DNA of 64,000 bases from a virus. A program made the translations under genes and the position numbers. The DNA lies in the UHGV virus genome UHGV-1366123; one strand, written 5' to 3'. Below, one piece after another: positions 12,274 to 55,674 of this stretch (the stretch's first letter is position 1; every line of letters starts with the position of its first letter). The notes beneath the pieces are model-generated. The model had not been told where the DNA came from. It saw only the letters and a program-made list of their open reading frames with translations, and searched no databases.

Positions 12274-12280
12274 AAGACAA

Positions 12281-16213: not shown

Positions 16214-16339
16214 TTGCTATTCTTTATTTTAGTTTGTGCCCGAGACCTCACCTTCGATATAAGAAAGGTGAGGTCTTAACATATAAGAACAATAACAATC
16301 ATCAACAATAACAATCAAAGACAATAACAATCAAAGACA

Positions 16340-17125
16340 ATGCAAACTTATCTCGATTTGCTCAAGTACGTTCTTGAAAATGGAACAGAAAGAACTGACA
16401 GAACTGGAACTGGAACAATCTCCGTGTTTGGTCATCAAGTGGAATATGACGTAAGTGAAAAGTTCCCAATACTCACCACGAAGAGAATCCACATGAGAAG
16501 TGTCATTATGGAACTTGCTTGGATGCTCAAAGGTGATACCAACGTGAAGTTCTTAAGAGACAATGGTGTGACGATCTGGGATGAATGGGCAGATGAAAAC
16601 GGAGATCTCGGAAAGATCTACGGAAAGCAATGGAGAGATTTCGGAGGGATTGATCAAATCAAGGATATCATCGACCAAATCAAGAACAACCCAGATTCAC
16701 GAAGAATAATCGTCTCGGCTTGGAATCCTGCAGAACTCTCGGAAATGGCACTTCCTCCTTGTCATTGCTTCTTCCAGTTCTACGTCGAAGGTGACCGACT
16801 ATCCTTGAAGCTTTATCAAAGATCTGCTGATCTCTTCTTGGGTGTTCCATTTAACCTTGCACAATACTCACTCTTGCTTTACATTGTTGCAAAGATCTGT
16901 GGAAAGAAACCTCATCGTTTTATCCACTCGTTTGGAGATCTTCATATCTACAAGAATCACTTGGATCAAGTAAAGCTCCAACTATCGAGAAAACCATACG
17001 AACTCGCAGAGGTAAAAATCGTGGGAGATATCGACATTGATAATATCTCCGCAAATCTCATCGATCAAATCGAAATCAAGAACTACGTTCATCATCCCAC
17101 AATCAAGGCGGATGTGAGTGTTTAA
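16340..17125 (+). CDS. thyA: thymidylate synthase
   Basis: Near full-length collinearity with E. coli ThyA: DRTGTGT, FPxLTTKR, DTNxxx[33 protein letters not shown] and the catalytic [11 protein letters not shown]. Confidence 0.95.
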
Positions 17126-36884: not shown

Positions 36885-37142
36885 ATGGAAATAAAGCTAT
36901 TAGGAAAGAAGATCCTCATTAAGCTCAATGAGGTCGAAAAGCAGGTCGATGGCTTCGAACTGGTACAACATAACGATGTAGACCAAACAGCAGGTGTCGT
37001 CACGAATGTTGGTATTGGTGTCACAGAAGTCAAAGTCGGTGATAAAGTAATCGTCAACAAGTTCTCTGGTATTGAGGTGCTTATCGAGGGTGATAAGTTC
37101 AAGGTAGTAGAGGAACACGAAATATTAATCATTGTAAGATAA
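36885..37142 (+). CDS. groES: co-chaperonin GroES (Cpn10)
   Basis: 85 aa. IKLLGKKILIK ... VKVGDKVIVNKFSGIEV ... EHEILIIV matches the GroES beta-barrel pattern. Immediately upstream of groEL. Confidence 0.75.
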   Translation: MEIKLLGKKILIKLNEVEKQVDGFELVQHNDVDQTAGVVTNVGIGVTEVKVGDKVIVNKFSGIEVLIEGDKFKVVEEHEILIIVR

Positions 37143-37151
37143 ACAGACTGA

Positions 37152-38741
37152 ATGAACGCTGTAGATGTAAAAAGTGGATCAGAAGCCAGAGAGCTGATCC
37201 TCGTTGGTGCAAAGACGATCCACGACGTTGTTGGGTCTACTCTGGGACCTGGCGGTCGAAATGTCATCATCAAGCACAACACGTACGATGTACCACAGGT
37301 CACTAAAGATGGTGTGACTGTAGCAAGAAAGATGAAGCTACAGAACTATTGGCACAACATAGGCTGTCAACTCGTAAAGCAAGCATCAATGCGAACTGCA
37401 GTTGATGCAGGTGATGGAACAACGTCTTCTGTTGTGATGGCGTATACGATGATGAAACTAATCGACGGACTTCTAAATGAGAATCCCGAGATTGATGTTC
37501 ATCGACTTCGTCACGAAATGGAAAAGATGAAGGATGTTCTCATTGAAAAGCTTCGGGAAATCGCCACACCGATCGTTGATATTCAGCAGGTCTTCGATAT
37601 CGCAAAGATCTCCACGAACAATGATGAGAAACTTGCAGGTCTTCTTGCAGAGATCTATGGGAAGATCGGTAAAGATGGGATAATCGTTCTTGAACAATCA
37701 CAACTTTCTGATATCACCTATTCGATCGAATCTGGATTCCGATTTGATGGCGGTTGGCAGTCTCATTATTTCGTAAAGGACAAATCAAAGATGTCGTTTG
37801 GATCTGACGATTGTGCAATCTTCATCACAAATCACAAGATCCAAGACGGAAAGACGATGCTCTCGGCACTTTCAAGAATCTATGGTACAGGTGTCCGTGA
37901 CCTTTTGATCATTGCGGAAAACATCGAAGGTGAAGCACTATCGACCTTGATCGCCAATAACCAGAGTGGGAAGATGAACATTTGTCTCGTCAATCCACCA
38001 TATTACGGACAGAAGCGTGAAGAATACCTCACTGACCTCTCCATTTCTCTTGATATGAAGCCACTGATGGTGGGAGACCAATCCGTCACCCCTCTTTCGT
38101 TCACAGAAGAGTACTTCTCTTGCGGTCGAAGCGTCTTTGTGGATAAAAACACCACAACGATCAGAAATGACAAGGAAAGTGTATCGTCTGCCGTCGAAGA
38201 GCATATCTCAAATCTGAAGTCTCTTATGGATTCCGACGAGGAAGACAAGGAATGGATCGAGAAGAGAATAGCGACCCTAAGGTCATCAGTTGCCGTCATC
38301 AAGGTCGGTGGGAATTCAGAATCTGAAGTTTATGAACACAAGGATAGACTTGAAGATGCGATTTGTGCTATAAGATCAGCATACAAGGATGGAATAGTCG
38401 CAGGTTGTGGTATCACGTACCTAAGACTAATCTCTGCACTTGATCCTTCTCTTGACACGTTCCATATCTTGAAATCTGGACTTGAATCCGTGTTCAAGAA
38501 GATTATGATCAACTCATGCATATCAGAGGAAGAAGAATCGTCGATTCTCTACTTCATAGGTGAAGATGAAGCGTATGGTTATGATGCCAAGAAACGTCAG
38601 AAGTCGTATAACTCGATCCAAGATGGCATCATCGACTCGGCACGTGTTATAAAAAACTGTATCGAGAACTCGATATCGGTCGCTATCATGTTTATGATCT
38701 CTGACAACATCGTTATGGAAATCGATGAATCGATTATTTAG
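37152..38741 (+). CDS. groEL: chaperonin GroEL (Cpn60)
   Basis: TLGPGGRNVII, VTKDGVTVA and AGDGTTSSVVMA (GroEL ATP-binding DGTTT block). 529 aa. Confidence 0.9.
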   Translation: MNAVDVKSGSEARELILVGAKTIHDVVGSTLGPGGRNVIIKHNTYDVPQVTKDGVTVARKMKLQNYWHNIGCQLVKQASMRTAVDAGDGTTSSVVMAYTMMKLIDGLLNENPEIDVHRLRHEMEKMKDVLIEKLREIATPIVDIQQVFDIAKISTNNDEKLAGLLAEIYGKIGKDGIIVLEQSQLSDITYSIESGFRFDGGWQSHYFVKDKSKMSFGSDDCAIFITNHKIQDGKTMLSALSRIYGTGVRDLLIIAENIEGEALSTLIANNQSGKMNICLVNPPYYGQKREEYLTDLSISLDMKPLMVGDQSVTPLSFTEEYFSCGRSVFVDKNTTTIRNDKESVSSAVEEHISNLKSLMDSDEEDKEWIEKRIATLRSSVAVIKVGGNSESEVYEHKDRLEDAICAIRSAYKDGIVAGCGITYLRLISALDPSLDTFHILKSGLESVFKKIMINSCISEEEESSILYFIGEDEAYGYDAKKRQKSYNSIQDGIIDSARVIKNCIENSISVAIMFMISDNIVMEIDESII

Positions 38742-38820: not shown

Positions 38821-39963
38821 ATGAGCAACGAAGTTTTTGATTTTGGTGGGATTTTCGATATGAAGTCCGATGACTTCAAGCAGAAGGAAACCACCCAATT
38901 CTCCAACCCAGACTTTTACTCTCCTCGCATCGACGACGAGAATGTAAAGGACAACATCTATCAGTCAAAGCTGAGATTCCTACCAAATGTCAACGTCGCC
39001 CCCAACGGAGAGCGCACGAACATCGTAGTAAAGCACGTCTACTACGTTCCCGATCCAGATAACCCTGGGCAGAAGTGCTACATCGATGCACCATCGAACG
39101 AGCCTAAGGCGAAGGATATCGCATCTGTAGCGTTCATGATGTTCGGCTACGATAAGAGCAAGATCTACAGATCAGATGCTCCTGCAATCGTCAAGAAGAA
39201 TGCAAAGCAGTTGAAGCGCAACACCTACCACTACTCTTTGGTGCAGGTCATCAAGGACACACAACATCCAGAACTCGAAGGATCGGTAAAGATCTTCAGA
39301 TACGGTGGTGTGATCTACGAAAAGATCATGCAACTTATCAACGGTAACCCAGCTCTTGGGATCAATCCAATCATCCCATTCGATCCTCTCAATGGTAAGG
39401 AATTCATCATGGTTCTTTCCAAGGGTCAGAATGATCAAGGTCAAGAACTTAACACCTACATGCAGTCGAGATTCGTCGATGATCGTTCCGCAATCACGAT
39501 TGATGGACGAGAAATGACCGATTCTAATGAGGACAAGCAGGAGATCTTCAACTTCCTCAAGGAAAAGTCTCCCGATCTCTCACAGACGATGTTCCAAAAG
39601 ATGACGGAAGACGATGTTGAACGTCTCAATCGAGCAGTCCGTGATGTCATTGACGATGATAAGTGGTTCGGTATGGCTTATCAAGCATGTTATGGGAAGC
39701 CATTCATTCCCGATGCAGTCCGTGAATCTGTCGTGTCCACAGAGAAGTACGATGATGAAGATATCGAAGTCGAAGAACAGGTAGTCGAAGAACCAGTGAA
39801 GAAATCTCCACGACGAGAAGAACCAGCTTCCTCTACGATGTCCAAGTTCAAGTCCCTCAAGGAAGAAGCTGAAAAGCCTGCACCTGCAAAGAAGCCGACT
39901 GATAAGCAACCATCGATCTCTGACATGATGGAAGATATCGATGACGATCTCGACTTTGAATAG
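38821..39963 (+). CDS. single-stranded DNA-binding protein, T4 gp32-like
   Basis: KLRFLPNVN ... core collinear with the gp32 RFLPSKNDEQ ... region. Highly acidic C-terminal tail (DIDDDLDFE) as in gp32. Confidence 0.7.
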   Translation: MSNEVFDFGGIFDMKSDDFKQKETTQFSNPDFYSPRIDDENVKDNIYQSKLRFLPNVNVAPNGERTNIVVKHVYYVPDPDNPGQKCYIDAPSNEPKAKDIASVAFMMFGYDKSKIYRSDAPAIVKKNAKQLKRNTYHYSLVQVIKDTQHPELEGSVKIFRYGGVIYEKIMQLINGNPALGINPIIPFDPLNGKEFIMVLSKGQNDQGQELNTYMQSRFVDDRSAITIDGREMTDSNEDKQEIFNFLKEKSPDLSQTMFQKMTEDDVERLNRAVRDVIDDDKWFGMAYQACYGKPFIPDAVRESVVSTEKYDDEDIEVEEQVVEEPVKKSPRREEPASSTMSKFKSLKEEAEKPAPAKKPTDKQPSISDMMEDIDDDLDFE

Positions 39964-40041: not shown

Positions 40042-41220
40042 ATGATGGAAAATGTACAAGGAATCTTCGATTTTTCTACGGAAACAGAGTCGTTTTCTCA
40101 TGACGAGTTCATAAGAAAGTTCATCCCTTTGTTCAAGTCTGTGCTCGTATCCAAGTTCGGTACGTCATACAAAGCGAAGATAAGTATGACAAGCCGTGAT
40201 ATTAATTGTGGATGTCCACATTGTGGAGATGGTAGCAGTTCATACAAGAGGAGATTTCACATATACTTCCAAAACTACTCTTATAAATGCTACAACGATT
40301 GTCACAAGCCGTTTGGCTCTTTGTACAATCTCATACATGAGTACGGACTTCAGTACAGTTTCACGCATGTAGAACTTTCTCACATCAAGCGAGTTTTCGA
40401 GGACTTCATGAAAAGTGGTCTTGCGAAAACCGACAAATCGATCAAAGTCACTGGTCGTGACATTATCGACAAAGATGGTCACATATCGACGCAAGTCCCA
40501 GAAGTCAACGATTACGCATTTCCAAGAGAAGAGATAATGGGCGCAAAACATCTCCGAGAAGTCAGAAGATCACCTGCGCTCATCGAATATCTCCGAAAAA
40601 GAGCAGTGATCACCGATAAAACCGATCTTTACGAAAACAGATTGAGGACGTTTGCATATAACGAGAAGTATGAAGACCTTTATGTTTTCAATCTTGCGAA
40701 GAATATGCGTGATGTGATAGGTGTGCAGATCAAGCACCTCTCTCCGAAGTCACGGAGAAGGTTTACAACGATGTCATGGTCTAAAATATGGACTGACATT
40801 TTCCAGCTTCAGCCGAAGGGTTTCGAAGAGCTTTCCGTGAAGTTTGACAAGATATCAATGATATGGAACTCGTTGCATATTGACTTCTCTCGAAGATACA
40901 ACATTCTTGAAGGGACTTTCGATGCCTACTTCGTGGACAATTCGATCGCATGTTGGGGACTTTCAAACTTTGTCTATAACAAGAGCGCATACTACATCAC
41001 CGATAATACGCTCCTTGATATGGCAGGCAAAAAGAAGTCATTGGAACTGATAAATGGTGGTTACAACACCTTCTTGTGGGCAAAGTTTGCAGAAGATTTC
41101 CCAGATATTGCTTACACGTGCAAAGATATGAACGACATAGTCAGAAAATTCCCAAACTTCAATATGGGTGTCTTGGAGAAGTACTTTGGTAATGATGAAT
41201 TTGATACACTTTACATATGA
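40042..41220 (+). CDS. DNA primase, T4 gp61-like (zinc ribbon plus TOPRIM)
   Basis: CGCPHCGDGSS ... KCYNDCHK zinc ribbon (T4 gp61 CPVCGD ... HCYNCNYH). TOPRIM-like EGTFDAYFVDNSIACWG (gp61 EGPIDSLFLDNAVAITGG). Confidence 0.7.
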   Translation: MMENVQGIFDFSTETESFSHDEFIRKFIPLFKSVLVSKFGTSYKAKISMTSRDINCGCPHCGDGSSSYKRRFHIYFQNYSYKCYNDCHKPFGSLYNLIHEYGLQYSFTHVELSHIKRVFEDFMKSGLAKTDKSIKVTGRDIIDKDGHISTQVPEVNDYAFPREEIMGAKHLREVRRSPALIEYLRKRAVITDKTDLYENRLRTFAYNEKYEDLYVFNLAKNMRDVIGVQIKHLSPKSRRRFTTMSWSKIWTDIFQLQPKGFEELSVKFDKISMIWNSLHIDFSRRYNILEGTFDAYFVDNSIACWGLSNFVYNKSAYYITDNTLLDMAGKKKSLELINGGYNTFLWAKFAEDFPDIAYTCKDMNDIVRKFPNFNMGVLEKYFGNDEFDTLYI

Positions 41221-41842: not shown

Positions 41843-41898
41843 AAACATATCGTCTTTTAAATAACGAAACCTTTATACCTCGGTGTTGAAAGACGATT

Positions 41899-42123
41899 AT
41901 GACGATCAAGGATTGTATAATAGACATTTGTAAGTCTATAGGAAAAATCTCAGTTTCTGATATCTTGAAATATGTTCGGAACAATGGATGGTTTGAAAAA
42001 GATCTCTCCATTGACATTGATGACGATGACCAGACCAGTATTGGAAAAATACAAAAGTTCGTAAGAGATGGTATAGACACCATAACGGAATCGGAATCGG
42101 AAGAAGTAAACTCTGAAGAATAA
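41899..42123 (+). CDS. hypothetical small acidic protein
   Basis: 74-aa ORF preceded by TTTAAATAACG (41856-41866). Confidence 0.4.
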   Translation: MTIKDCIIDICKSIGKISVSDILKYVRNNGWFEKDLSIDIDDDDQTSIGKIQKFVRDGIDTITESESEEVNSEE

Positions 42124-42128
42124 CGACA

Positions 42129-42539
42129 ATGACGATCAAATCATACATCAATCAACTCGAAGACAGAGACATCATCCGAGCATATGTCGCCTGTGTGATA
42201 CACCAATACGAGGACAAAGTCGGAACTAAAGATCCCGATGAGTTCTTGAAACTGGAATATGAAGATGTTTCCAAACATATCGATGAAATAATCAAGAATG
42301 CTCGTACGACGTTCATGTGTTACGCCACTAATGAGGAGGAAATGGTAGAGTTCGTCAAGAGCGACGGATATATCGAACTTCTCCGAGAAGGAGGTGACTA
42401 TGAAGATGTCCTTCAAATGTACGGAGGTGATGAAAACGCAATGATGGTTGCTTACTTCTATGATCTTATAGAAGATGATGTGTTTGAACACGACGGTTAC
42501 TTTTTCTATATGATGGAAAATGACTACGAACGTGGATAG
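42129..42539 (+). CDS. paralog-array member 1 (acidic; N-terminal MTIKSYINQL, C-terminal DGYFFYMM)
   Basis: Shares the family N-terminal block MT(V/I)xEYIxTLPDxDLIxAYI and the C-terminal GYYF motif. Confidence 0.65.
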   Translation: MTIKSYINQLEDRDIIRAYVACVIHQYEDKVGTKDPDEFLKLEYEDVSKHIDEIIKNARTTFMCYATNEEEMVEFVKSDGYIELLREGGDYEDVLQMYGGDENAMMVAYFYDLIEDDVFEHDGYFFYMMENDYERG

Positions 42540-42581
42540 CTTCCGCAACAAATAAAGAAACAATCTTAATAAGAAACAAAT

Positions 42582-42983
42582 ATGACCGCAGAAGAATATG
42601 TCGGATCGTTACCCGACAAAGATCTCATCTTTGCGTATATCAATTGCATCATCTTCGAATATCTCACAGGTGCGGAATTCGAAGATTTTGATATCTTCAT
42701 ATTCCACAAACAGTATGAAGATGTTAAAGATTATATCGATGCATTTGTGGAAGAAGCTCGTGATCGTGCACTCACCGACTACCCAATCACATCTGAAAAA
42801 GATGTTCTCAGATACTACGATGAAACTTGTTATGGTCATGAAAACGATCCAGATGTCGATATCCAAGAAGGAAGAAAGAGATTCGAAGATGATCCATTAG
42901 GAATGCTCCACCAATTACTCGATACGATGAGTGATAACTGGGCTGAATACAACGGTTATTATTTCGTGGTTGGTGCTTGGTAA
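42582..42983 (+). CDS. paralog-array member 2
   Basis: MTAEEYVGSLPDKDLIFAYINCI ... EEARDRALTDYPITSEKDVLRYYDE ... NGYYFVVGAW. Confidence 0.7.
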   Translation: MTAEEYVGSLPDKDLIFAYINCIIFEYLTGAEFEDFDIFIFHKQYEDVKDYIDAFVEEARDRALTDYPITSEKDVLRYYDETCYGHENDPDVDIQEGRKRFEDDPLGMLHQLLDTMSDNWAEYNGYYFVVGAW

Positions 42984-43010
42984 TATAAAAAATCGTAAAA
43001 GAAAGAAACA

Positions 43011-43400
43011 ATGACTGTAAGAGAATACATCAACACATTTGAAGACGCAGGTCTCATTCTTGCGCATATCGAACTTGTCAAAGATGGGAAGTATGGGAAA
43101 GAAACCGTAGATTTTGATATCGACAACGATGAAATCGAAGATGTCAAAGACCAAGTCGATAAGCTCATATACAAATCATTCGATAGGTGCGTGTATCCAG
43201 ATCCAATAAGAACTGAGGAAGACATCTACGAGTATCTCAAGACTTGTGTTGGTTATGGTACTGATGATGATCCAACATACTTAGAATATAAGGCAATATG
43301 GGAAAAAGATCCATGGACTAAGTTCTTCCAATCGATTGACGAACAGTGTCCTTGGTTTGAACAAGATGGTTACTACTTCATGGACACTTATAACATGTAA
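43011..43400 (+). CDS. paralog-array member 3
   Basis: MTVREYINTFEDAGLILAHIELV ... QDGYYFMD. Confidence 0.7.
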   Translation: MTVREYINTFEDAGLILAHIELVKDGKYGKETVDFDIDNDEIEDVKDQVDKLIYKSFDRCVYPDPIRTEEDIYEYLKTCVGYGTDDDPTYLEYKAIWEKDPWTKFFQSIDEQCPWFEQDGYYFMDTYNM

Positions 43401-43821
43401 AAAGGAAAGAGAAAGAAATACGACTGCAGAACAATATATCAAGACACTACCAGATTCGGAGCTTATTCTCTCTTATATCGCATTGGTAGTATCTGAAGAC
43501 ATCGAAGGAACGGAAGGTATGGATGCCGACATCAACAACGATGAATACGAAGATGTCAAAGACCAAGTCAACACACTCATCGAACAAGCTCGTGATCGTG
43601 CGATCATCAATTATCCTATAAGATCCGAAGAAGATACTCTCAAATATTTCGAAGACACCTATGGTGAATTCATTGAGAATAATGAGGATCTCCAAGAATA
43701 TGAGAAGAAATGGAAAGAAAACCCATGGAAGGAATTCAAAGATTCTCTTAATGAAGTGAAAGCTTATTACAAGAATGGTAAGTGGTACGAACACAATGAT
43801 TATTACTTCATAGTCTGGTAA
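43366..43821 (+). CDS. paralog-array member 4; the canonical ATG is replaced by ACG, so the start is uncertain (ORF track 43336..43821 uses TTG; first in-frame ATG is 43366)
   Basis: (T)AEQYIKTLPDSELILSYIALV ... EQARDRAIINYPIRSEEDTLKYFED ... NDYYFIVW. At the homologous start position the sequence reads AAATACGACT versus AAAATGACT in its siblings. Confidence 0.5.
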   Translation: MVTTSWTLITCKKERERNTTAEQYIKTLPDSELILSYIALVVSEDIEGTEGMDADINNDEYEDVKDQVNTLIEQARDRAIINYPIRSEEDTLKYFEDTYGEFIENNEDLQEYEKKWKENPWKEFKDSLNEVKAYYKNGKWYEHNDYYFIVW

Positions 43822-43848
43822 TTCGTATTCATAGAAAAGATAAAGATT

Positions 43849-43879
43849 GACGTGGCGAAATGTTTGATTTCGCCACGTC
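43849..43879. terminator. 13-bp stem GACGTGGCGAAAT / ATTTCGCCACGTC followed immediately by TGTATATAAAAG
   Basis: Read directly. First of three homologous hairpin-plus-TATA modules inside the array. Confidence 0.6.
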
Positions 43880-43891
43880 TGTATATAAAAG
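43880..43891 (+). promoter_or_regulatory. TGTATATAAAAG box directly abutting a terminator hairpin (same module at 44720 and 45678)
   Basis: Conserved 12-mer in three homologous intergenic modules within the paralog array. Related TATA(A/T)AAG boxes follow terminators at 16277, 23424, 27280, 29536, 31334 and 40030. Confidence 0.4.
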
Positions 43892-43907
43892 AAAATTCTG
43901 ATATAAA

Positions 43908-44252
43908 ATGAAAACGAGATTAAGAGAATATATCGAAACGCTACCAGATTCATACATCGTTTCTCAATATCTTACATGTGTTGAACTTGGATATACGCAC
44001 GATAAAGAGATTATCGATCTATACGAACAACATGCTCATGATCGTCTACTCATCGATCGTCCAATACACACTAGTTATGACGTTATGGAATACTTTGATG
44101 ATACCTTTCCCGATTGGGAAAACGATCCAGATCTCGTAGAAGAAAGAAAGAAATGGGAAGAAGATCCATGGGGAAAATTATACAAAGTACTCGACGAAAT
44201 GGGTACTTGGTGTGGATATGGTGGTTGTTATTTCTTGGCTGAAAAACGATAA
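43908..44252 (+). CDS. paralog-array member 5 (short subfamily)
   Basis: MKTRLREYIETLPDSYIVSQYL ... FPDWENDPDLVEERKKWEEDPW ... GGCYFLA. Confidence 0.7.
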   Translation: MKTRLREYIETLPDSYIVSQYLTCVELGYTHDKEIIDLYEQHAHDRLLIDRPIHTSYDVMEYFDDTFPDWENDPDLVEERKKWEEDPWGKLYKVLDEMGTWCGYGGCYFLAEKR

Positions 44253-44292
44253 CACAACTTCTGATAGATATATAAAAAATAACGATAGAAAA

Positions 44293-44643
44293 ATGGAAAA
44301 TTTAACGCTAATAGAATATATAAGGACGCTACCTAATAGTGAACTCATCGAAGCGTACATGGGATCTCTCGCAATTGGACAAATGAGAGATAAGGAAATT
44401 ATTGATATGTACGAACAACATGCTCGTGAACGTTTAATCTTTGATCATCCAGTGCATAAAGAAGATATTATTGGAATCTTTGATGAAATGTTTCCAGATT
44501 GGGAAAACAACCCAGACCTCGTAGAAGAGAGAAAGGAATGGGAAGAATATCCATGGTATAAGCTACGACAAGCACTTGATGCAACGTACGGTAATAATTG
44601 GCATGAATACCAAAGTTATTATTTCGTTGACAATGTTCGATAA
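44293..44643 (+). CDS. paralog-array member 6 (short subfamily; ORF track start 44212 overlaps the upstream gene)
   Basis: MENLTLIEYIRTLPNSELIEAYM ... FPDWENNPDLVEERKEWEEYPW ... QSYYFVD. Closest to member 5. Confidence 0.65.
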   Translation: MENLTLIEYIRTLPNSELIEAYMGSLAIGQMRDKEIIDMYEQHARERLIFDHPVHKEDIIGIFDEMFPDWENNPDLVEERKEWEEYPWYKLRQALDATYGNNWHEYQSYYFVDNVR

Positions 44644-44685
44644 CACAGTTCACTCACGAAAACACTGATAGAAAATAACAAGTCG

Positions 44686-44719
44686 GATGTGACGAAAGGT
44701 TCAAACCTTTCGTCACATC
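44686..44719. terminator. 16-bp stem GATGTGACGAAAGGTT / AACCTTTCGTCACATC followed by TGTATATAAAG
   Basis: Read directly. Homologous to the 43849 and 45644 modules. Confidence 0.6.
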
Positions 44720-44763
44720 TGTATATAAAGAAAGAAAAACAATCTTAATAGAGAAGAGAGAAA

Positions 44764-45156
44764 ATGACTGTAGAAGAATATATCAAGACGCTACCCGACG
44801 CAGATCTCATCTTTGCGTACATTGCGTGTGCTGGAACAGAAGATATCGACGTTGGTGAAGACCTTCGTGAACTCGATATAGAAAACGACGAATATGAAGA
44901 CTTTAGTGATGAGGTCGAAGAACTCGTAGAACAAGCACGTGACCGTGCCATAGCTGAATATCCTATCAGCTCTAAGGAAGATGCTCTGAGATACTTCGAC
45001 GAGTGCTATGGTGATGATCTTGAGGATGATGAAGAACTCCAAGAATGGAGAGAGAAATGGGAAGAAGACCCATGGACACATTTCTATCATGTACTTGACG
45101 AAATGGGTGATTGGTATGAAGACAACGGTTATCACTTCAGAGCTGAAGAGTGGTAA
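44764..45156 (+). CDS. paralog-array member 7
   Basis: MTVEEYIKTLPDADLIFAYIACA ... EQARDRAIAEYPISSKEDALRYFDE ... NGYHFRAEEW. Confidence 0.7.
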   Translation: MTVEEYIKTLPDADLIFAYIACAGTEDIDVGEDLRELDIENDEYEDFSDEVEELVEQARDRAIAEYPISSKEDALRYFDECYGDDLEDDEELQEWREKWEEDPWTHFYHVLDEMGDWYEDNGYHFRAEEW

Positions 45157-45174
45157 TAAGAAGAAAAGAGAAAT

Positions 45175-45621
45175 ATGACTGTAAAAGAACATATCAACAC
45201 ACTTAAATATCCAGGTGTCGTCTTTGCGTATATCGAATGTGTTTTAAAAGAAGGCATCGATGTAGTTGAGAATTTACGTGATCTCGATATAGAGAACGAC
45301 CAGTATGAAGATGTTAAAGATCTGGTCGATGAACTCGTAAAACAGGCAGACTATTGTTCTCTCGCTGATTATCCAATCATAACCAAAGAAGATGTTCTGA
45401 CATACTTTGAGGATTCCTATTGGGAATACCATGGTGAAAACGGAGAGTACATAAAACTCGTGGAATATAAGCGTGAATGGAAGAAAGATACATGGAACAA
45501 GTTCCGTCGATTGATTGAGAGAACTGTAGAGGATGTCAGAAGGGAAAATAATAGTAACGATACTTTGTATGAATGCAGAGGTTACTACTTTATAATCGAT
45601 CCTCAAGGGCACAACTCGTGA
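45175..45621 (+). CDS. paralog-array member 8
   Basis: MTVKEHINTLKYPGVVFAYIECV ... CRGYYFIIDP. Confidence 0.7.
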   Translation: MTVKEHINTLKYPGVVFAYIECVLKEGIDVVENLRDLDIENDQYEDVKDLVDELVKQADYCSLADYPIITKEDVLTYFEDSYWEYHGENGEYIKLVEYKREWKKDTWNKFRRLIERTVEDVRRENNSNDTLYECRGYYFIIDPQGHNS

Positions 45622-45643
45622 GCTGACCATAATAGAAAATCGA

Positions 45644-45678
45644 GACGGTGGCGAAAGGTTTAAACCTTTCGCCACATC
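45644..45678. terminator. stem GTGGCGAAAGGTTT / AAACCTTTCGCCAC followed by TGTATATAAAAG
   Basis: Read directly. Confidence 0.55.
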
Positions 45679-45722
45679 TGTATATAAAAGAAACGAAAAA
45701 GAACAAAAACCTCCGTGAAATT

Positions 45723-46058
45723 ATGACTATTAAAGAATACTTAGAAGGTCTCTTCGAATCGAAGATGTATCTCAAGTTTTACGAGTTGTTCGGTGACAGA
45801 TTCGGATTCTCTCTTGAAGATGACTATTCTCAGTTTGAAAAGAAAGTAGACTATTTCGTCGAAACTGCAGATATCGAATTCTTCTGTCTTGAAGAAAACC
45901 TCGAAGACACTGTTGACAAATTCTTCATCATTCCAATGTTGAAGAACATGAGCGACATCAGTTATATTCGAAAGTTCTTCGATTATGAATCGTATAAGCA
46001 GATGCTCATTGATCGTGGTTACACAGTCAAAGACAACTACGTGTTCTCACCATTCTAA
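45723..46058 (+). CDS. paralog-array member 9 (divergent; ORF track start 45648 lies inside the terminator hairpin)
   Basis: MTIKEYLEGLFESKMYLKFYELF ... Retains the N-terminal block and periodic acidic-aromatic pattern but lacks the terminal GYYF. Confidence 0.55.
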   Translation: MTIKEYLEGLFESKMYLKFYELFGDRFGFSLEDDYSQFEKKVDYFVETADIEFFCLEENLEDTVDKFFIIPMLKNMSDISYIRKFFDYESYKQMLIDRGYTVKDNYVFSPF

Positions 46059-46078
46059 ACAATAAGAAACAAAAGATC

Positions 46079-46459
46079 ATGACTATCAGAGATTATATCA
46101 GAGAAAACTGTCATATTCCTTACGAAGCAATAATTGCCTATTACGAATATGATACCAGTGTCAGTGGTATCGATATCGACTTCGAATACGACGAAAAGGA
46201 AGCAGGAGGATTCGAAGCCATGGAAATTGATATTCAGAAGGAACTTGCAGATAAACTCATCGACAAGGCTGAAAGCGTTTATCAATGTGATGAAGATTCG
46301 TTTGAAGACATGGTAAACGATCACTATATCGATCAATACATAGCCGATGGGGCTGATCCGAAGGGGATTTATCGCTTCTTCGATTATGATAAGTTCAGAG
46401 AACACCTTTTCAATGACGGTTTCTTCGAACATAACGGTTATTGGTTCATCGGGTATTAG
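46079..46459 (+). CDS. paralog-array member 10
   Basis: MTIRDYIRENCHIPYEAIIAYYEY ... NGYWFIGY. Confidence 0.7.
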   Translation: MTIRDYIRENCHIPYEAIIAYYEYDTSVSGIDIDFEYDEKEAGGFEAMEIDIQKELADKLIDKAESVYQCDEDSFEDMVNDHYIDQYIADGADPKGIYRFFDYDKFREHLFNDGFFEHNGYWFIGY

Positions 46460-46494
46460 TCGAAAGAAACTAATAAACGTAAGAATCGAACGAT

Positions 46495-46537
46495 GGGGGG
46501 GGGGTCACGTAGTTATCTTTTATTACATGACCCCCCC
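46495..46537. repeat. G10 ... C7 homopolymer-capped hairpin (GGGGGGGGGGTCACGTA ... TACATGACCCCCCC)
   Basis: Read directly. The only long G/C homopolymers in an otherwise AT-rich window. Followed by TTTAAATAAC (46545-46554). Confidence 0.5.
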
Positions 46538-46576
46538 TCGTTCATTTAAATAACAAAATCTAAAGAAACAAAAATT

Positions 46577-46990
46577 ATGACGACGACTATTAGAGACTAT
46601 ATCAGAGAAAACTGTCACATCGACTATGAAGCAGTGATCGCCTACTACGAAAGTGGCTATTGTAATGTTGAAGTCGATATCGACTTCGAATACGACGACG
46701 AAAAGGAAGCAGGGGAATTCGAGACTTCGGAAGATTACGATAACTACTACTCAGAAATCGACGTTCAGAAGGAACTCGCAGATGCGATCATCGAGAAGGC
46801 AGAAGAAAACTATCAGTGTGATGATGATGGATTCGAAGACATGGTAAACGAACTCTACATCGACCCATGTATTGAAGGTGCAGCTGATCCAGACACGATC
46901 TATCGTTACTTCGACTATGATAGTTTCAGACGTGACCTTCTGATGGGTGACTACTTCTATCAAGACGGTTATTACTTCCTCGCCTACTAG
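46577..46990 (+). CDS. paralog-array member 11
   Basis: MTTTIRDYIRENCHIDYEAVIAYYES ... DGYYFLAY. Closest to member 10. Confidence 0.7.
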   Translation: MTTTIRDYIRENCHIDYEAVIAYYESGYCNVEVDIDFEYDDEKEAGEFETSEDYDNYYSEIDVQKELADAIIEKAEENYQCDDDGFEDMVNELYIDPCIEGAADPDTIYRYFDYDSFRRDLLMGDYFYQDGYYFLAY

Positions 46991-47022
46991 TCGAGAGATT
47001 CATAATATCATAAAAATCAGAG

Positions 47023-47053
47023 AGGGCAAGGAAAACTATTTCCTTGCCCTCTC
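47023..47053. terminator. perfect 14-bp stem AGAGGGCAAGGAAA / TTTCCTTGCCCTCT with a 4-nt loop, closing the array
   Basis: Read directly. The stem sequence is related to the PeSL arm motif. Confidence 0.55.
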
Positions 47054-47126
47054 CTTGTGTTTGAGCCTATTTCTCCTTGCCGAACTACCTTCACAGTCGT
47101 CAGAGATCAAGGAAAGTACCTCTCCG

Positions 47127-47834
47127 TCATTTCCTCGATTCTCTCTTCTTCACATAGTCTTGTACTTCTTTTATCTTTGTTTTTACAATTTCCACATCTT
47201 TATGCTTTCCTATACCACTTCCGTCAAGATTTCTCCAATATCTCCAATAGATCGCTCTTATCTGCATCTTCTCGATGTATCTTATCGGGAACGTACAAAT
47301 CTTGTACCAATCTTCATATGAAACAATCATTGGTTTCGATTGGAATCTTTCAAGTCTGTATGATCTGATTGCAAATTCGAAACCGCTGTTTTGAAGGACT
47401 TTCTTTGCCACATCATAATAAAGCGGAATATCCAAGATCGGTGTTTCTCCAGCGTTTATCTTTTCTATGTTTGGACTTATGACTTGCGTATTCCAAAGCC
47501 TTATTATCGTGTCGAGAACCTTTATACGCATCGACGGAGGGATAAACGACAGGTTTATCCCATAAGGAAGAAGATGACCTTCCGATGTTATCTTATAACC
47601 TATTATGAAAGTCAATGGACACCATGAGAAGAAGTCCATTTCATCCTTAGTTATAGGATCATAGAACCACGTATAAATCTTGCCTATCTTTGGAATAGGT
47701 GTTCGAGATTCTTCTCTGGGGTTCTTCTCTTTCATAACATAAACGTCATCAAACCACTTCTTTGATCTACTGACGATAGTAGAGTAAGGCGTGGTCTCGG
47801 ACATTTTCATTATGGTTTCTGATACAAGCTCCAT
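47127..47834 (-). CDS. hypothetical protein
   Basis: Isolated 235-aa ORF on the minus strand between the array and the baseplate gene. Confidence 0.5.
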   Translation of the reverse strand: MELVSETIMKMSETTPYSTIVSRSKKWFDDVYVMKEKNPREESRTPIPKIGKIYTWFYDPITKDEMDFFSWCPLTFIIGYKITSEGHLLPYGINLSFIPPSMRIKVLDTIIRLWNTQVISPNIEKINAGETPILDIPLYYDVAKKVLQNSGFEFAIRSYRLERFQSKPMIVSYEDWYKICTFPIRYIEKMQIRAIYWRYWRNLDGSGIGKHKDVEIVKTKIKEVQDYVKKRESRK

Positions 47835-47882: not shown

Positions 47883-49490
47883 ATGATTGCGGATTTCTTA
47901 TCAAAATTGAGAATTAAGGCATACGACACACTCAACGACACCATAAACTTCCTAATCCAAAAGTACAAGACTGATATTCGTTCATTCTCGTATTCATCAC
48001 CCTTTGGTCAGATTCTTATTGTTTTGCAGAACCATATGCAAAACATTTACTATTATATCACAGATTCCGCAAATCAGACAAATTTCCACACTGCAAACAG
48101 ACAATCTTCCGTTTATGGCTTGGCCAGACTTCAAGGTTATAACGCTTATCGTGGGAAATCTGCGACTGGTGTCATAAATCTGAAAGTCAAACCAGATGCA
48201 AAGACGAATCTCATAACTGGGAATCGTGTTTTTATACCGAATTATTCAAAGCTTACGTGTCTGCAGAATGGTCTCGTTTACATGCTCGATCTTGGTAAAG
48301 ATTACGAGATCTTCGACATTCAAAAAAGAGTAGACGTTTCCTTGAACATAATAGAGGGAAAACTTGAGTACCAAACGTTCACAGGGACAGGTGAAGATAT
48401 TCAGTCTTATGAAGTTCATGCATCCCAATGGAACATGTTTGACAATGACTTCGTTATTGTTACTGTAAATGGGAAAGAATACCCTCAGTACGATTCACTT
48501 TACGACATACCTTACGGAGAATGCGGATGTTTGGTGAAAACTGGGATGACTTCTGGGATCGATGTCATCTTCGGGAAATCATCTCATAACGAAGTACCTC
48601 CTCTTGGTGCAGAAATACGAGTGGACTACATCACTACGAGTGGTTCTGTGGGGAACGTTTTCGAAGATACGGTCTTGTTTTCCCTCAATGACACTTGCTT
48701 TGACACTTATGGAAACGAGATAAACATGTCCGATATCTTTGTTGCCGTCAATGAGGTCAATCCTTCATTTGGTGCAGATTCAGAACCAATAGAAATGACA
48801 AAGATTCTCGCACCAAACATTTCTCGCAACTTTGTAATACACGACAAACGAACAATTGAGAACTTCTTCCGTCGTATGAACTACTTCTCATTGATAGATG
48901 TTTTCAAGAGAGAAGTGAATCATCACAATGAGTATTCCGTCGTTCTTGTTCCAAAGCTCAAATCCCTCATACTTCGAAACGAAGACTACTTCGATTTCAA
49001 CACAGATCACCTTTTTATAAAGGAAAATGAAAAGCAGAAACTGATCGACACGATAAAGTCGTATGGTAACAAATCGTTAGATATTTCAATAAGCATTGTA
49101 AACCCAGAGATTAGAAGATTTGTGGTTTATCTTTATGTTGAACTTTTCCGAGAAGTGAAAGGAAAACCGACGGACTTTGAACGTGTACAATCCGACATTC
49201 GTCATGCACTTTCTGCTTATCTTCTCGATTCACAGAAACTGACGAAGATAACTCATTCTGACATAGTTTCACAGATTGACGGTATAGTTGGTGTCGATAG
49301 CGTCAAAGTGGTGTTTGTTCCAGAGTACGAAGGTGATGTGGATGAAATCGGCAACATTTCTCTGAAGCCATCACAGATCGCAGTCCTTCGTGGAGGTTTT
49401 ACAGATTCTCAAGGCATCTCTTACAAGGACACTTTCACGACACCAAACGAGATGTCATCGGTCAACATAGCAATAGAGTATTCCAAATAA
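47883..49490 (+). CDS. baseplate wedge protein, T4 gp6-like (Baseplate_J family), tentative
   Basis: QSSVYGLARLQGYNAYRGKSATGVINLKV resembles the gp6 block RSSVVQAAQDNGYLPTSKSAAQTEIMLT. 535 aa. GGTTAAATAAAAG motif upstream. Confidence 0.5.
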   Translation: MIADFLSKLRIKAYDTLNDTINFLIQKYKTDIRSFSYSSPFGQILIVLQNHMQNIYYYITDSANQTNFHTANRQSSVYGLARLQGYNAYRGKSATGVINLKVKPDAKTNLITGNRVFIPNYSKLTCLQNGLVYMLDLGKDYEIFDIQKRVDVSLNIIEGKLEYQTFTGTGEDIQSYEVHASQWNMFDNDFVIVTVNGKEYPQYDSLYDIPYGECGCLVKTGMTSGIDVIFGKSSHNEVPPLGAEIRVDYITTSGSVGNVFEDTVLFSLNDTCFDTYGNEINMSDIFVAVNEVNPSFGADSEPIEMTKILAPNISRNFVIHDKRTIENFFRRMNYFSLIDVFKREVNHHNEYSVVLVPKLKSLILRNEDYFDFNTDHLFIKENEKQKLIDTIKSYGNKSLDISISIVNPEIRRFVVYLYVELFREVKGKPTDFERVQSDIRHALSAYLLDSQKLTKITHSDIVSQIDGIVGVDSVKVVFVPEYEGDVDEIGNISLKPSQIAVLRGGFTDSQGISYKDTFTTPNEMSSVNIAIEYSK

Positions 49491-49496
49491 AGAAGA

Positions 49497-49868
49497 ATGG
49501 AAAAATCAATCAAGTTAACAAGAAACAACTTTCTTGTAGAAGAATTGTGTAAAGATGCGCTCCTCGATTTCGATTCTCCGAGAAATGTTGGTGTTGTCGT
49601 ATGTGGTAACGAGAAATATGAAGATGTGAAAGTCGGGGACAAGGTCTTCTTCGGTGAAACCAATGGTTACATGATAGAACTCAACGGCATTCGTTATTGT
49701 CTTCTGTCATATTCCGAAATGCTCGGCATTATCGAGGGTGAATGTGGTCGGGAAGATATTATCGTTGGGAGATACCGAGACCTTGATGACTACATAGACA
49801 AGCTCACACAGAAGAATCTTCTCGGTGATAATCCGATCAACATACACGAAGGTATGTTTTATAAATAA
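49497..49868 (+). CDS. possible second Cpn10/GroES-fold protein (gp31-like co-chaperonin candidate)
   Basis: IKLTRNNFLVEE ... NVGVVVCGNE ... DVKVGDKVFFGETNGYMIELNGIRYCLLSYSEMLGIIE parallels the GroES blocks IRPLHDRVIVK ... GEVLAVGNG ... DVKVGDIVIF ... EVLIMSESDILAIVE. Confidence 0.35.
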   Translation: MEKSIKLTRNNFLVEELCKDALLDFDSPRNVGVVVCGNEKYEDVKVGDKVFFGETNGYMIELNGIRYCLLSYSEMLGIIEGECGREDIIVGRYRDLDDYIDKLTQKNLLGDNPINIHEGMFYK

Positions 49869-54915: not shown

Positions 54916-55674
54916 ATGGGAAAAAGAAAGAAGATACAAGAAAAGTTCAAGAAACTGAGGAAGTCGGGGTGTCTTAAAGATATCGCATCGATCAGAAATA
55001 CAAACCCCGAAATGATGGGCAAAGGGGTGACTATCACAAACATGGCAGACACCTTCAACCTCTTCGATTTCAAGGCAGAAAACATCAACATTCATGCGGT
55101 GGCCAGATCACTGTCGAATCAATGCAGATACAATGGATCGACGAATGGGTTCTACTCTGTGGCTCAACATTGCGTTCGTATGGCAGAATCCGCTTTGCTT
55201 GCATATGGTGACGTTCGACTTGCTCTCGCAATTCTGCTCCACGACGCTACAGAGTGCTACGTTTCCGATATCCCTTACACGTTGAAGAGGGAACTTCCCG
55301 ATCATATCAAGCAGATCGAGAAGGATATCGAGAAGGTGATTTTCTCACACTTTGGTGTGGGTGAATACCTCGATTCAAAGCTTATGAAGTTCATCGACAC
55401 ACAAATCTGTAATGATGAACTCGAGTTCCTTCTTGGTCAGCAGATCGGCATTGACGAGTATCTCTCAGACAAACTCAGAGATCTCGACAATCGTGATTGG
55501 TCACGTGGTGGCATTTACCCATATCAAAAGCCAATCGTGTTCGAGTTCGACTATTGGTCTCCAGAGAAGGCATATGAACAATTCATCACACACTTCTATA
55601 AGTACACTTACCTCATCGAAAAGTATAAGGGAAAGGAAGTGTTGACGAAGTTTGGTGTTAACACAGAGAAATAA
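54916..55674 (+). CDS. HD-domain phosphohydrolase
   Basis: Metal-binding H ... HD ... D pattern (VAQHCV, LLHDATECYVSD). Confidence 0.7.
   Translation: MGKRKKIQEKFKKLRKSGCLKDIASIRNTNPEMMGKGVTITNMADTFNLFDFKAENINIHAVARSLSNQCRYNGSTNGFYSVAQHCVRMAESALLAYGDVRLALAILLHDATECYVSDIPYTLKRELPDHIKQIEKDIEKVIFSHFGVGEYLDSKLMKFIDTQICNDELEFLLGQQIGIDEYLSDKLRDLDNRDWSRGGIYPYQKPIVFEFDYWSPEKAYEQFITHFYKYTYLIEKYKGKEVLTKFGVNTEK

Follow-up and report, generated by a model that had tools for sequence, protein, structure and literature searches.

A tandem array of eleven highly acidic, ArdA-like paralogues in an uncultivated T4-like phage

Phage T7 encodes Ocr (gp0.3), a small and acidic DNA mimic that acts as a dimer and inhibits Type I restriction–modification (R-M). 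ArdA is the DNA mimic with which mobile elements disable bacterial restriction enzymes, its homodimer resembling bent B-DNA and inhibiting Type I R-M. ArdA-type mimics (PF07275; Tn916 ORF18, PDB 2W82; IncI and IncF plasmids) are usually single-copy and broad-spectrum, and ArdA domain 1 is thought to touch HsdR. ArdA domain 3 is built of a three-stranded sheet plus three helices, and its C terminus closes a strand; the residues named for ArdA are D111, D112, D115, P131, L134, Y137, I138, D139, Y140, D146 and I160-F161 (PMC2731889). The natural small ArdA proteins termed sArdC match the ArdA C terminus and are active against EcoKI and EcoR124II in vivo (PMC12548430). They keep the C-terminal dimerization region and are predicted to form dimers (Utkina et al. 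2025, PMC12548430), and they are about one-third of the length of ArdA, chromosomal (Lactococcus, Actinomycetes) and single-copy (PMC12548430). In the Fletchervirus NCTC 12673, a Campylobacter phage, the ArdA-like DNA mimic gp119 (pI 3.74) inhibits EndoV; its resemblance to ArdA is confined to domains 2 and 3, and both dimerization and DNA mimicry are predicted for it (PMC13091555). With regard to gene organization, promoter/stem-loop (PeSL) cassettes are known from the hyperplastic regions of T4-type phages (PMC2839356, PMC4122927).

Here we describe a locus in a 64-kb window (the whole stretch of DNA analysed) from an uncultivated, human-associated T4-like myovirus of ~150 kb, whose probable host belongs to the Bacteroidota. 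Eleven paralogues, all on the + strand, occupy positions 42129–46990 in the ORF list of the window. A primase-like gene lies on one side and T4 gp2 on the other, the gp2 gene being convergent with g11, and the locus is a hyperplastic region of a T4-type phage. A family HMM found no further member in the window, and in searches of billions of proteins the family was confined to related phage contigs of ~145–151 kb. The small orf74, located immediately upstream of the array, shares its first 11 nt with g1 and is kept in relatives (dN/dS ~0.1), with no detectable membership of the family. The window also encodes PurZ-like, MazG-like, ThyA-like and dNMP-phosphatase-like genes. Lengths in the following list are counted from the homologous Met.

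orf74, 41899..42123, + strand: acidic 74-aa protein immediately upstream of the array
g1, 42129..42539, + strand: 136 aa, sub-family A, pI 4.16, net charge -22, family HMM 1e-36
g2, 42582..42983, + strand: 133 aa, sub-family B
g3, 43011..43400, + strand: 129 aa, sub-family B
g4, 43420..43821, + strand: 133 codons, sub-family B
g5, 43908..44252, + strand: 114 aa, short sub-family B form
g6, 44293..44643, + strand: 116 aa, short sub-family B form
g7, 44764..45156, + strand: 130 aa, sub-family B; at 35% D+E and net charge -37, the most acidic of the array
g8, 45175..45621, + strand: 148 aa, sub-family B, fast-evolving member
g9, 45723..46058, + strand: 111 aa, sub-family C
g10, 46079..46459, + strand: 126 aa, sub-family D, ArdA-like C-terminal domain
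g11, 46577..46990, + strand: 137 aa, sub-family D, closest member to ArdA

The preliminary description had proposed a head-to-tail array of 11 diverged acidic paralogues sharing an N-terminal block and a C-terminal GYYF-type motif, and ORFs, alignment, BLASTP and profiles all bear this out. Both motifs are common to the members in the alignment, and the F of GYYF is invariant. The proteins span 111–148 aa. Several figures of the preliminary description require revision: the tail that follows GYYF has 2–10 residues, rather than 3–6; and the computed pI of the 11 members is 4.05–4.58, rather than below 4, with a net charge of -10 to -37 and a D+E content of 21–35%. Near-identical segments had been reported for g5/g6 and g10/g11. 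Such stretches are present in both pairs, but overall identity is only 51% and 59%, respectively (BLASTP 3e-49 for g10 versus g11). BLASTP among g2–g8 gives 1e-8 to 1e-45. Sub-family profiles built without common sequences match one another at E 1e-5 to 2e-12, except for the weaker match of the g9 type with the g2–g8 type (E 4e-4), and g1 connects sub-family B with C and D in both sequence and profile comparisons. At the level of sequence, the paralogy of the members is thus far above chance, and the four sub-families are all homologous.

None of Pfam, PHROGs, PADLOC, PDB sequences or Foldseek recognized the family. It is understandable that the preliminary description could not place it, because every curated library misses it, and the known-fold check suggested there likewise left it unrecognized. 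The best members score 12.4–13.6 bits (E 0.11–0.25) against Pfam ArdA (PF07275), below its gathering score of 27 bits; ArdA is nevertheless the sole family that recurs sub-threshold, its matches always stopping at profile position 154/155. Pfam scans gave no ArdA match for ten window members (all but g10) at E<=1, nor for g10 and g11 at E<=10. More sensitive comparisons point to ArdA through sub-family D. By tblastn against 72,556 plasmids (7.3 Gb), g11 matched 1,790 records, of which the best 15 are all annotated ArdA; the best match (E 3e-3, 37% identity) covers residues 49–134. Against 2.3 Gb of phage genomes, the best four matches of g11 are all antirestriction/ArdA-like genes, two of which pass Pfam ArdA (E 3e-12 and 2e-35), and g7 and g10 gave no match. 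In pairwise BLASTP, g11 matches Citrobacter ArdA at 3e-10 and phage PT2 ArdA at 2e-8, g10 matches plasmid ArdA at 1.6e-6, and g9 reaches 1e-5 in pairwise ArdA comparison. The D-type profile aligns with the ArdA profile (hhalign) with 93.9% probability and E 1.6e-7, the E value improving from 2.4e-3 to 1.6e-5 to 1.6e-7 as ArdA profile diversity is widened; the real score of 27.5 compares with 21.5 for the top of 300 column shuffles. The C-type profile matches ArdA in register (E 1.5e-4). Sub-families A and B have no direct ArdA match (profile E 0.1–0.3) and reach ArdA only via D. By homology, the family is a remote, shortened ArdA derivative with a remodelled N terminus. The ArdA half of the earlier suggestion of Ocr/ArdA-type DNA mimics is in this way supported at the level of homology; kinship with Ocr was rejected, and no sequence or fold similarity to Ocr was found.

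AlphaFold2 models were obtained with pLDDT values of 93.7 (g11) and 90.8 (g7). The g11 model (137 aa) comprises strand 79–82, helices 83–99, 105–111 and 114–123, and strands 126–129 and 132–135, and counterparts of these elements are present in g7. Both models have the predicted beta-alpha-alpha-alpha-beta-beta architecture of ArdA domain 3. The ArdA residues named in PMC2731889 are identical or conservatively swapped in 18–22 of 22 D-type sequences. Within the dimer-interface 'antirestriction motif' (ORF18 126–140, with L134, Y137, I138 and D139, and D146 as partner), P131 is retained as P in 21, L134 as I/L in 20, Y137 as Y/F in 22, I138 as F in 22, D139 as D in 22, Y140 as Y in 22 and D146 as D/E in 18. 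This motif is kept in sub-family D (g10/g11), partly kept in C and lost in A and B, where a W-x-x-D-P-W segment stands in its place. The essential VF motif of ArdA (I160-F161, in the middle strand of domain 3) aligns with the (Y/W/I/V/F)-F of GYYF, the F being invariant in 11 of 11 window members and 31 of 31 sequences of set A3. ArdA domain 1 (residues 3–61, a conserved N-terminal beta-sheet with long loops) is missing: the longest ArdA alignment begins at residue 50 of ArdA, and the N terminus is modelled as two short helices in both g11 and g7.

Copy number was compared across ten related phages whose flanking genes are 93–100% identical. Gene order is the same throughout, and the arrays hold 3–11 copies through differences in presence or absence. 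Related arrays also contain chimeric genes, among them the g2/g7 chimera of L014, where the deletion is the product of recombination between paralogous coding sequences. L007 and L010 have an indel junction that brings g3 next to g7, and L009 carries a truncated g2. Every related array has g9, a highly conserved gene (dN/dS 0.02–0.06), and g5 is missing from 10 of the 10 related arrays compared, near-identical proteins being found elsewhere (P0010). For 10 of the 11 genes dN/dS is 0.02–0.5 (dS 0.15–1.3), a sequence-derived sign of purifying selection and hence of functional constraint. The exception, g8, has values of 0.7–1.55 versus five relatives, that is, near 1, but all of its alleles have an intact reading frame and keep the core motifs. 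Array genes have a higher dN/dS than flanking genes. In g4, the start position is ACG, whereas it is ATG in the orthologues of L011, L012 and L013, and the orthologue P0001 begins MTAEQ; a canonical start is therefore missing at the homologous position, and g4 may be translated inefficiently, have lost its activity or contain a sequence error. The repeated duplication and rapid divergence proposed earlier, and the expansion sought in relatives, are thus both evident. The idea of a 'cassette system' finds no support if it means programmed diversification: no reverse transcriptase, invertase or similar machinery was seen beside the array, and its variation looks like the ordinary gain, loss and recombination of a T4-type hyperplastic region.

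The array and its borders contain the following intergenic elements, which are promoter-like or terminator-like by sequence.

41858..41869, + strand: TAAATAACGAAA late-promoter-like motif upstream of orf74
43849..43889, + strand: hairpin then CTGTATATAAA, a terminator/promoter-like cassette upstream of g5
44269..44276, + strand: TATATAAA motif 24 nt ahead of g6, lacking a hairpin
44686..44729, + strand: hairpin and CTGTATATAAA cassette upstream of g7
45648..45688, + strand: hairpin and CTGTATATAAA upstream of g9, a cassette sharing 93% identity with that of g7
46489..46558, + strand: G/C-run hairpin then TAAATAACAAAA late-promoter-like motif upstream of g11
47019..47054, unstranded: terminator-like hairpin, bidirectional, separating g11 from the convergent gp2 gene

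The three copies of the hairpin and CTGTATATAAA composite all lie within the array and occupy the same sites in relatives, and several indel junctions in related arrays have no hairpin cassette. The TAAATAACGAAA motif is followed by the tightly packed run orf74-g1-g2-g3-g4. The late-promoter-like TAAATAAC precedes orf74-g1–g4, g11 and a capsid-like gene, with a variant, TAAATAAA, preceding a baseplate gene; g5–g10 have a motif class common to nucleotide-metabolism and replication genes. The orf74-g1–g4 and g11 units share the motif of the capsid and baseplate genes, and late rather than early expression would follow for them. Such timing would be atypical of anti-restriction proteins that are not packaged, which counts against the reading that we prefer below.

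By analogy with the described mimics, we consider it probable, with some reservation, that the duplicated ArdA-derived genes encode decoys that mimic DNA and act against Type I restriction as well as against other defence or host proteins that bind DNA. One ArdA-derived gene would have been duplicated into 11 diverged paralogues, each retaining the ArdA C-terminal domain that ends in the VF-type strand (GYYF), plus a domain-2-like helical part, with ArdA domain 1 replaced by a short helical N terminus of ~25–30 aa of its own. The products would most likely be small, highly acidic dimers, as suggested by ArdA, sArdC and gp119, that resemble a segment of B-DNA and block the groove in which host enzymes bind DNA, chiefly those of Type I R-M complexes. 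The g10/g11 and g9 types would be the ancestral, most ArdA-like forms, and g1 and the g2–g8 types later derivatives without the ArdA dimer-interface motif, which probably have different binding partners or another mode of pairing. Close relatives gain, lose and recombine copies, and the array would therefore act as a changeable decoy repertoire.

The need for 11 copies sits awkwardly with single-copy, broad-spectrum mimics and fits better with many different targets. It is conceivable, if somewhat doubtful, that most copies, especially g1–g8, have been re-aimed from restriction enzymes to different DNA-binding proteins of the host, for example glycosylases, repair nucleases, RNA polymerase or nucleoid proteins, making the array a host-takeover or DNA-protection kit possibly linked to a modified-base genome. 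The loss of the dimer-interface motif in A and B agrees with this, as do the PurZ-, MazG-, ThyA- and dNMP-phosphatase-like genes, which suggest non-canonical DNA needing shelter from repair, and the inhibition of EndoV, not R-M alone, by the gp119 mimic (PMC13091555). However, the D and C types retain the full ArdA structural motif set, and this reading, with its putative targets, overlaps with the decoy explanation rather than opposing it.

We regard it as improbable that the proteins are packaged in the virion like T4 internal proteins (IPs), with the MTxxEYI block as a capsid-targeting sequence, and injected with the DNA. Polymorphism is also a feature of the T4 IP locus, whose IPI* counters restriction; the N-terminal block is kept across otherwise diverged paralogues, the locus adjoins gp2, a head-packaged DNA-end protector, and TAAATAAC lies upstream of orf74-g1–g4 and g11 as it does for the capsid-like gene. 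Yet in both AlphaFold2 models the block, after which no consistent (L/I)xE protease site was seen, lies inside a folded domain (pLDDT 94–97), unlike a detachable leader; DNA-associated internal proteins are mostly basic, whereas the array members are extremely acidic; and the motif class of g5–g10 is that of nucleotide-metabolism and replication genes. Decaying duplicates or selfish filler with no present function would account for the missing ATG of g4, the truncated g2 in L009, the near-neutral g8 and the ease with which relatives lose copies, but purifying selection in 10 of the 11 genes, the intact g8 alleles and the confident models of g11 and g7 make this very improbable. The same holds for the immunity or antitoxin bank raised earlier, for which nothing was found in support, with no toxin or nuclease partner genes within or adjoining the array.

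As ArdA-derived decoys, the array proteins can be set beside the described systems. As with PeSL cassettes, short hairpin and promoter-like composites recur between the small accessory genes of the locus, and conserved core genes flank this variable region, where gene presence differs among near-identical phages. Here, however, the composites are a hairpin with CTGTATATAAA or TATAAGA, promoter-like only, rather than a sigma-70 early promoter; several indel junctions are cassette-free (L007 and L010, for example, at g3-g7); and recombination between paralogous coding sequences produced at least one deletion (L014). Like gp119 as described, the products are small, very acidic proteins of a T4-like myovirus, but gp119 is a single gene, and no Campylobacter phage is among the matches listed for g11, g7 and g10 (tblastn, phage genomes). 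Like sArdC as described, they are truncated ArdA derivatives with the C-terminal part retained; unlike sArdC, which has the C-terminal third of ArdA only, they are about twice as long and tandemly expanded, with an additional N-terminal module plus a domain-2-like part, ~70 residues preceding the domain-3 match. They differ from ArdA itself in their family-specific helical N terminus in place of domain 1, their sub-threshold Pfam scores, their length (111–148 aa versus 160–180 aa), their 3–11 tandem paralogues versus a single gene, and their carrier, which is a lytic T4-like phage and not a conjugative element. They resemble it in a homologous C-terminal domain with the same order of secondary structure up to the C terminus, in the essential VF motif of all members and the interface motif of the g10/g11 type, and in being very negative (pI ~4, from sequence-derived pI and net charge) and borne by a mobile genetic element.

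The array occupies positions 42129-46990 and comprises eleven consecutive plus-strand open reading frames, g1-g11, encoding aromatic-rich products of 111-148 amino acids (counted from the homologous start) with a net charge of -10 to -37 and an Asp+Glu content of 21-35%. The eleven-paralog array of the preliminary description is thus confirmed; the pI, put there below 4, lies slightly above that value (4.05-4.58). The aligned products share an N-terminal MT-x-x-EYI block and a C-terminal G-Y-Y-F motif, of which the Phe is invariant, and sort into four sub-families: A (g1), B (g2-g8), C (g9) and D (g10 and g11). BLASTP E values are 1e-8 to 1e-45 among sub-family B members and 3e-49 between g10 and g11. 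The near-identity described for g5/g6 and g10/g11 holds for stretches of these pairs; overall identity is 51% and 59%, respectively. Profiles of sub-families that have no sequences in common still match one another (D-C, E = 4e-9; D-B, 1e-7; D-A, 1e-6; A-B, 2e-12; C-A, 1e-5; C-B, 4e-4), and g1-g11 therefore form one family. The family HMM detected no further copy across the 64-kb window.

At its conserved start position g4 has ACG (43420-43422), where the orthologues of the related loci L011, L012 and L013 have ATG; the gene may recently have been inactivated, translation may begin at a non-canonical codon, or the base may be a sequencing error. Directly upstream of the array, orf74 (41899-42123, plus strand) encodes an acidic 74-amino-acid protein that is kept in relatives with a dN/dS of about 0.1. 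The gene begins with the same 11 nucleotides as g1, ATGACGATCAA. As a possible twelfth family member it was rejected (hhalign E = 0.011 over 9 columns).

The source of the window is a T4-like myovirus, in which the array has the following neighbours and landmarks:

35385-36881, family-B DNA polymerase, N-terminal half
37152-38741, GroEL
38821-39963, gp32
40042-41220, primase-like gene
42129-46990, plus strand, array g1-g11
47127-47834, minus strand, gp2 DNA-end protector, convergent to the array
47883-49490, gp6 baseplate wedge
49497-49868, GroES-like gene
59889-61844, prohead protease
61904-63526, capsid-like gene

The nearest cultured polymerases are those of a Flavobacterium phage (32% identity) and of Prevotella Lak phages. 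The relatives are metagenomic contigs of 145-151 kb, one of them recorded as oral metagenome, and none of 50,697 deposited phage genomes matched the locus at the DNA level in a blastn search. We infer a host in Bacteroidota. A sigma-70 promoter scan was uninformative (17 sites against 22.5 expected), an outcome that fits a non-proteobacterial host; Rfam and tRNA scans of the window returned nothing significant.

Several other features of the window were noted. The family-B polymerase is apparently encoded by two genes 23 kb apart (10957-12273 and 35385-36881) whose order is swapped: the gene for the C-terminal half, matching phrog_262 positions 478-841, lies upstream of that for the N-terminal half, matching positions 12-496. 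The terminase large subunit is matched by two adjacent open reading frames (32745-33827 and 33880-34698), and this gene may be split or interrupted. The annotation of relatives has an extra 85-amino-acid Cpn10 gene directly 5' of GroEL, where the window has a coding-looking gap of 270 nucleotides (36882-37151). A PurZ-like adenylosuccinate-synthetase homologue (25775-27205), a MazG-like pyrophosphatase (31365-31835), a dNMP-phosphatase-like gene (54916-55674) and a thymidylate-synthase-like gene (16340-17125) co-occur. This set could be a pathway to a non-canonical DNA base which, if true, would bear on why there are many DNA-mimic proteins.

Searched with a family profile, 1.84 billion representative proteins gave 15 matches, one spurious; P0038, a 2,102-amino-acid eukaryote-like repeat protein among the profile matches, was put down to low-complexity noise and rejected. 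Two further searches, over 5.8 billion clusters, yielded about 70 family clusters. None has a functional annotation apart from one apparently spurious GH114 glycosidase label, and every long contig in the set measures about 145-151 kb. Scanning array members with Pfam, PHROGs and PADLOC found nothing significant. The same was true of tblastn of g7 and of g10 against phage genomes, and of the Foldseek search of AlphaFold models suggested in the preliminary description, here run against the PDB. PDB-sequence HMM searches with two family profiles returned only a spurious SPT6 match (E = 4e-4) and no ArdA. The family, which had not been recognised at first reading, is thus missed by Pfam, PHROGs, PADLOC, PDB sequences and Foldseek alike.

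The C terminus of g10 and g11 (…FDYDxFRRDL…DGYYF) resembles that of ArdA, a DNA-mimic antirestriction protein (Pfam PF07275), and this lead was then tested. Pfam ArdA was the sole family to recur below threshold (3 of 31 family members), and all these matches reach profile position 154/155. In tblastn of g11 against all phage genomes, the top four matches were ArdA-like or antirestriction genes; the two of these that were checked pass Pfam ArdA (E = 3e-12 and 2e-35). Against 7.3 Gb of plasmids, g11 matched 1,790 records, 1,528 of them conjugative; the best 15 of the 1,790 are all annotated ArdA (best E = 3e-3; 37% identity across residues 49-134). Pairwise BLASTP gave E values of 3e-10 for g11 and 2e-6 for g10 against a Citrobacter plasmid ArdA, 2e-8 for g11 against the Aeromonas phage PT2 ArdA, 3e-8 for g11 residues 32-136 onto residues 50-168 of an Atlantibacter plasmid ArdA, and 1e-5 for g9 against the latter protein.

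Profile-profile comparison was anchored on Tn916 ORF18, the query sequence of which was verified to be identical to PDB 2W82_A. A first ArdA profile of 28 close ORF18 relatives gave E = 9e-4 and 23% probability, and it took four additional, diverged ArdAs to make the comparison convincing. With growing ArdA diversity the E value of the D type fell from 2.4e-3 to 1.6e-5 and 1.6e-7, with a final probability of 93.9%; such a gain is typical of true remote homology. The C-type profile alone matched ArdA at E = 1.5e-4 in the same register as the D type. The weakest real comparison scored 27.5; of 300 ArdA profiles with shuffled columns, used as a control, none scored above 21.5. Sub-families A and B reach ArdA solely via sub-family D. 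Descent of the family from ArdA is very likely, and we regard the family as an ArdA branch, not recognised before, that has been truncated and expanded in tandem.

ArdA is built from domains 1 (residues 3-61), 2 (62-103) and 3 (104-165), the last consisting of three helices and a three-stranded sheet; its dimer-interface 'antirestriction motif' spans residues 126-140, with L134, Y137, I138, D139 and D146, and its essential VF motif is I160-F161 on the middle strand (McMahon et al., PMC2731889). In the hhalign register, residues 69-134 of g11 align onto residues 95-161 of ORF18. The key positions were counted over 22 D-type sequences.

Key ArdA positions and their D-type equivalents
D111: D, 22/22
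D112: D/E, 21/22
D115: D/E, 21/22
P131: P, 21/22
L134: I/L, 20/22
Y137: Y/F, 22/22
I138: F, 22/22
D139: D, 22/22
Y140: Y, 22/22
D146: D/E, 18/22
I160-F161: (Y/W)-F, 22/22

As I160-F161 is aligned to (Y/W)-F in every sequence, the GYYF signature of the array corresponds to the VF motif of ArdA. AlphaFold2 models of g11 (pLDDT 93.7, pTM 0.82) and g7 (pLDDT 90.8, pTM 0.83) have the strand-helix-helix-helix-strand-strand order of domain 3 up to the C terminus; before these elements come two short helices at the N terminus and a long helix. In contrast to ArdA, the array family lacks domain 1, and sub-families A and B have a W-x-x-D-P-W segment in place of the interface motif. This phage lineage has reduced ArdA to its C-terminal two domains and added a new N terminus.

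Copy number was compared across relatives, as the preliminary description had suggested, in ten related loci obtained by exact-protein look-up and via the flanking gp2 gene; these contain 3, 5, 7, 7, 8, 8, 9, 10, 10 and 11 members. All ten arrays lie between the primase-like gene and gp2, with relative order unchanged. All nine close relatives have g1, g9 and one or more D-type genes. In L005, the most diverged phage, the array consists of one gene of C type and two of D type, and C and D therefore look ancestral, A and B derived. Presence and absence vary in blocks (for example g4-g6, g3-g8, g5 and g8), and chimeras join the N-terminal half of g2 to the C-terminal half of g7 (in locus L014) and that of g4 to that of g6 (protein P0002). 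In L009, the g2 orthologue (12171-12563, minus strand) is an array member in decay: the first 20 positions of the profile are missing from its N terminus, and its homologous start is not an ATG.

Flanking genes are 93-100% identical at the amino-acid level to those of six relatives (the small orf74, 89-95%), with dN/dS of 0.02-0.14 in most comparisons; array genes have dN/dS of 0.02-0.5, except g8. The latter combines 57-64% identity with ordinary dS (0.15-0.26) and dN/dS of 0.7-1.55, its replacements being scattered, with no frameshift and with core motifs kept. A whole-gene test of g8 for dN/dS above 1 was not significant; since the bootstrap intervals include 1, selection on g8 is strongly relaxed or partly positive, but not proven positive.

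Two types of candidate regulatory element are present. A hairpin followed by CTGTATATAAA occurs in three plus-strand copies in the window, all within the array (5' of g5, g7 and g9), and a bare TATATAAA lies 5' of g6; relatives' arrays have these elements at equivalent sites. The hairpin and TATATAAA cassettes are related to a genome-wide element, a hairpin followed by TATAAGA or TATA(T/A)AAA, found 5' of the thymidylate-synthase-, MazG-, PurZ-, dNMP-phosphatase- and primase-like genes. The second motif, TAAATAAC(R)AAA, has 7 matches against 1.3 expected, all on the plus (coding) strand, and lies 24-42 nucleotides 5' of six start codons, including those of the capsid-like gene, orf74 and g11.

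16258-16288, 23429, 27281, 31339, 32680 and 40032, hairpin and TATAAGA element 5' of nucleotide-metabolism and replication genes
4509, 29513, 41858, 46547, 49862, 59106 and 61865, plus strand, TAAATAAC(R)AAA

A variant, TAAATAAA, precedes the baseplate gene gp6. The hairpin and TATA-type element, by the genes that it precedes, suggests an early or middle expression class. The second motif resembles the T4 late promoter, TATAAATA, and looks like its equivalent in this phage. As orf74 leads g1-g4, these genes also lie behind that motif, and the array may be divided between two temporal classes. Between g10 and g11 (46489-46546) a G10 run pairs with a C7 run in a homopolymer hairpin prone to slippage and assembly error. 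The hairpin and TATA-type elements resemble the PeSL terminator-promoter cassettes of T4-type hyperplastic regions (PMC4122927, PMC2839356).

In the model of ArdA bound to EcoKI, domain 3 covers the target site of the Type I enzyme inside the methyltransferase groove, domain 2 extends to the groove ends and domain 1 points towards HsdR (PMC2731889). The ArdA C terminus alone (sArdC) protects lambda from EcoKI and EcoR124II (PMC12548430), and a domain 2-3-like protein of a T4-like Campylobacter phage is a DNA-mimic inhibitor of EndoV (PMC13091555). By analogy with this model and these precedents, D- and C-type proteins would be expected to dimerise via the conserved Y-F-D-Y interface and to fill the DNA groove of Type I methyltransferase cores; in the derived A and B types, partners or pairing may have shifted. 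An anti-restriction or anti-defence decoy function is the probable role of the array. Beyond this, we tentatively propose an evolving repertoire of DNA-mimic decoys, in which each paralog, possibly each heterodimer, would have its own target among the host's DNA-binding defence or repair enzymes, or would be diversified to escape mimic-sensing systems such as PARIS, which senses Ocr. Part of the repertoire would be made early; the rest (g1-g4 and g11) would be made late and enter the next cell together with the DNA. Copy gain, loss and recombination would set host range among phages that otherwise hardly differ.

Other readings carry less weight. Neofunctionalisation of the mimics towards repair or nucleoid proteins, which overlaps the decoy reading, is rather unlikely but gains appeal from the modified-base pathway that the window may encode. 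Packaged, injected internal proteins like those of T4 would suit the late-type motif and the proximity of gp2, but a folded N terminus and extreme acidity make this reading improbable. That the genes are decaying duplicates or an immunity bank is very improbable given purifying selection on 10/11 genes and the absence of partner toxins.

Curated profile libraries and Foldseek are blind to this branch of ArdA, and surveys of anti-defence genes in gut and oral phages therefore likely under-count DNA mimics. If the decoy copies differ in target, DNA mimicry would be a specific, evolvable scaffold, not a blunt tool, and the array a natural panel of variants with which to map what determines the target of a mimic. 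ArdA usually occurs as one gene, carried by plasmids and conjugative transposons, and is seen as an all-purpose inhibitor with broad action on Type I restriction. In this lytic T4-like phage lineage, by contrast, the family reaches eleven diverged copies, their number varying among phages with core genes 93-100% identical: a single-copy, broad-spectrum DNA mimic has here been turned into a variable, multi-copy repertoire.
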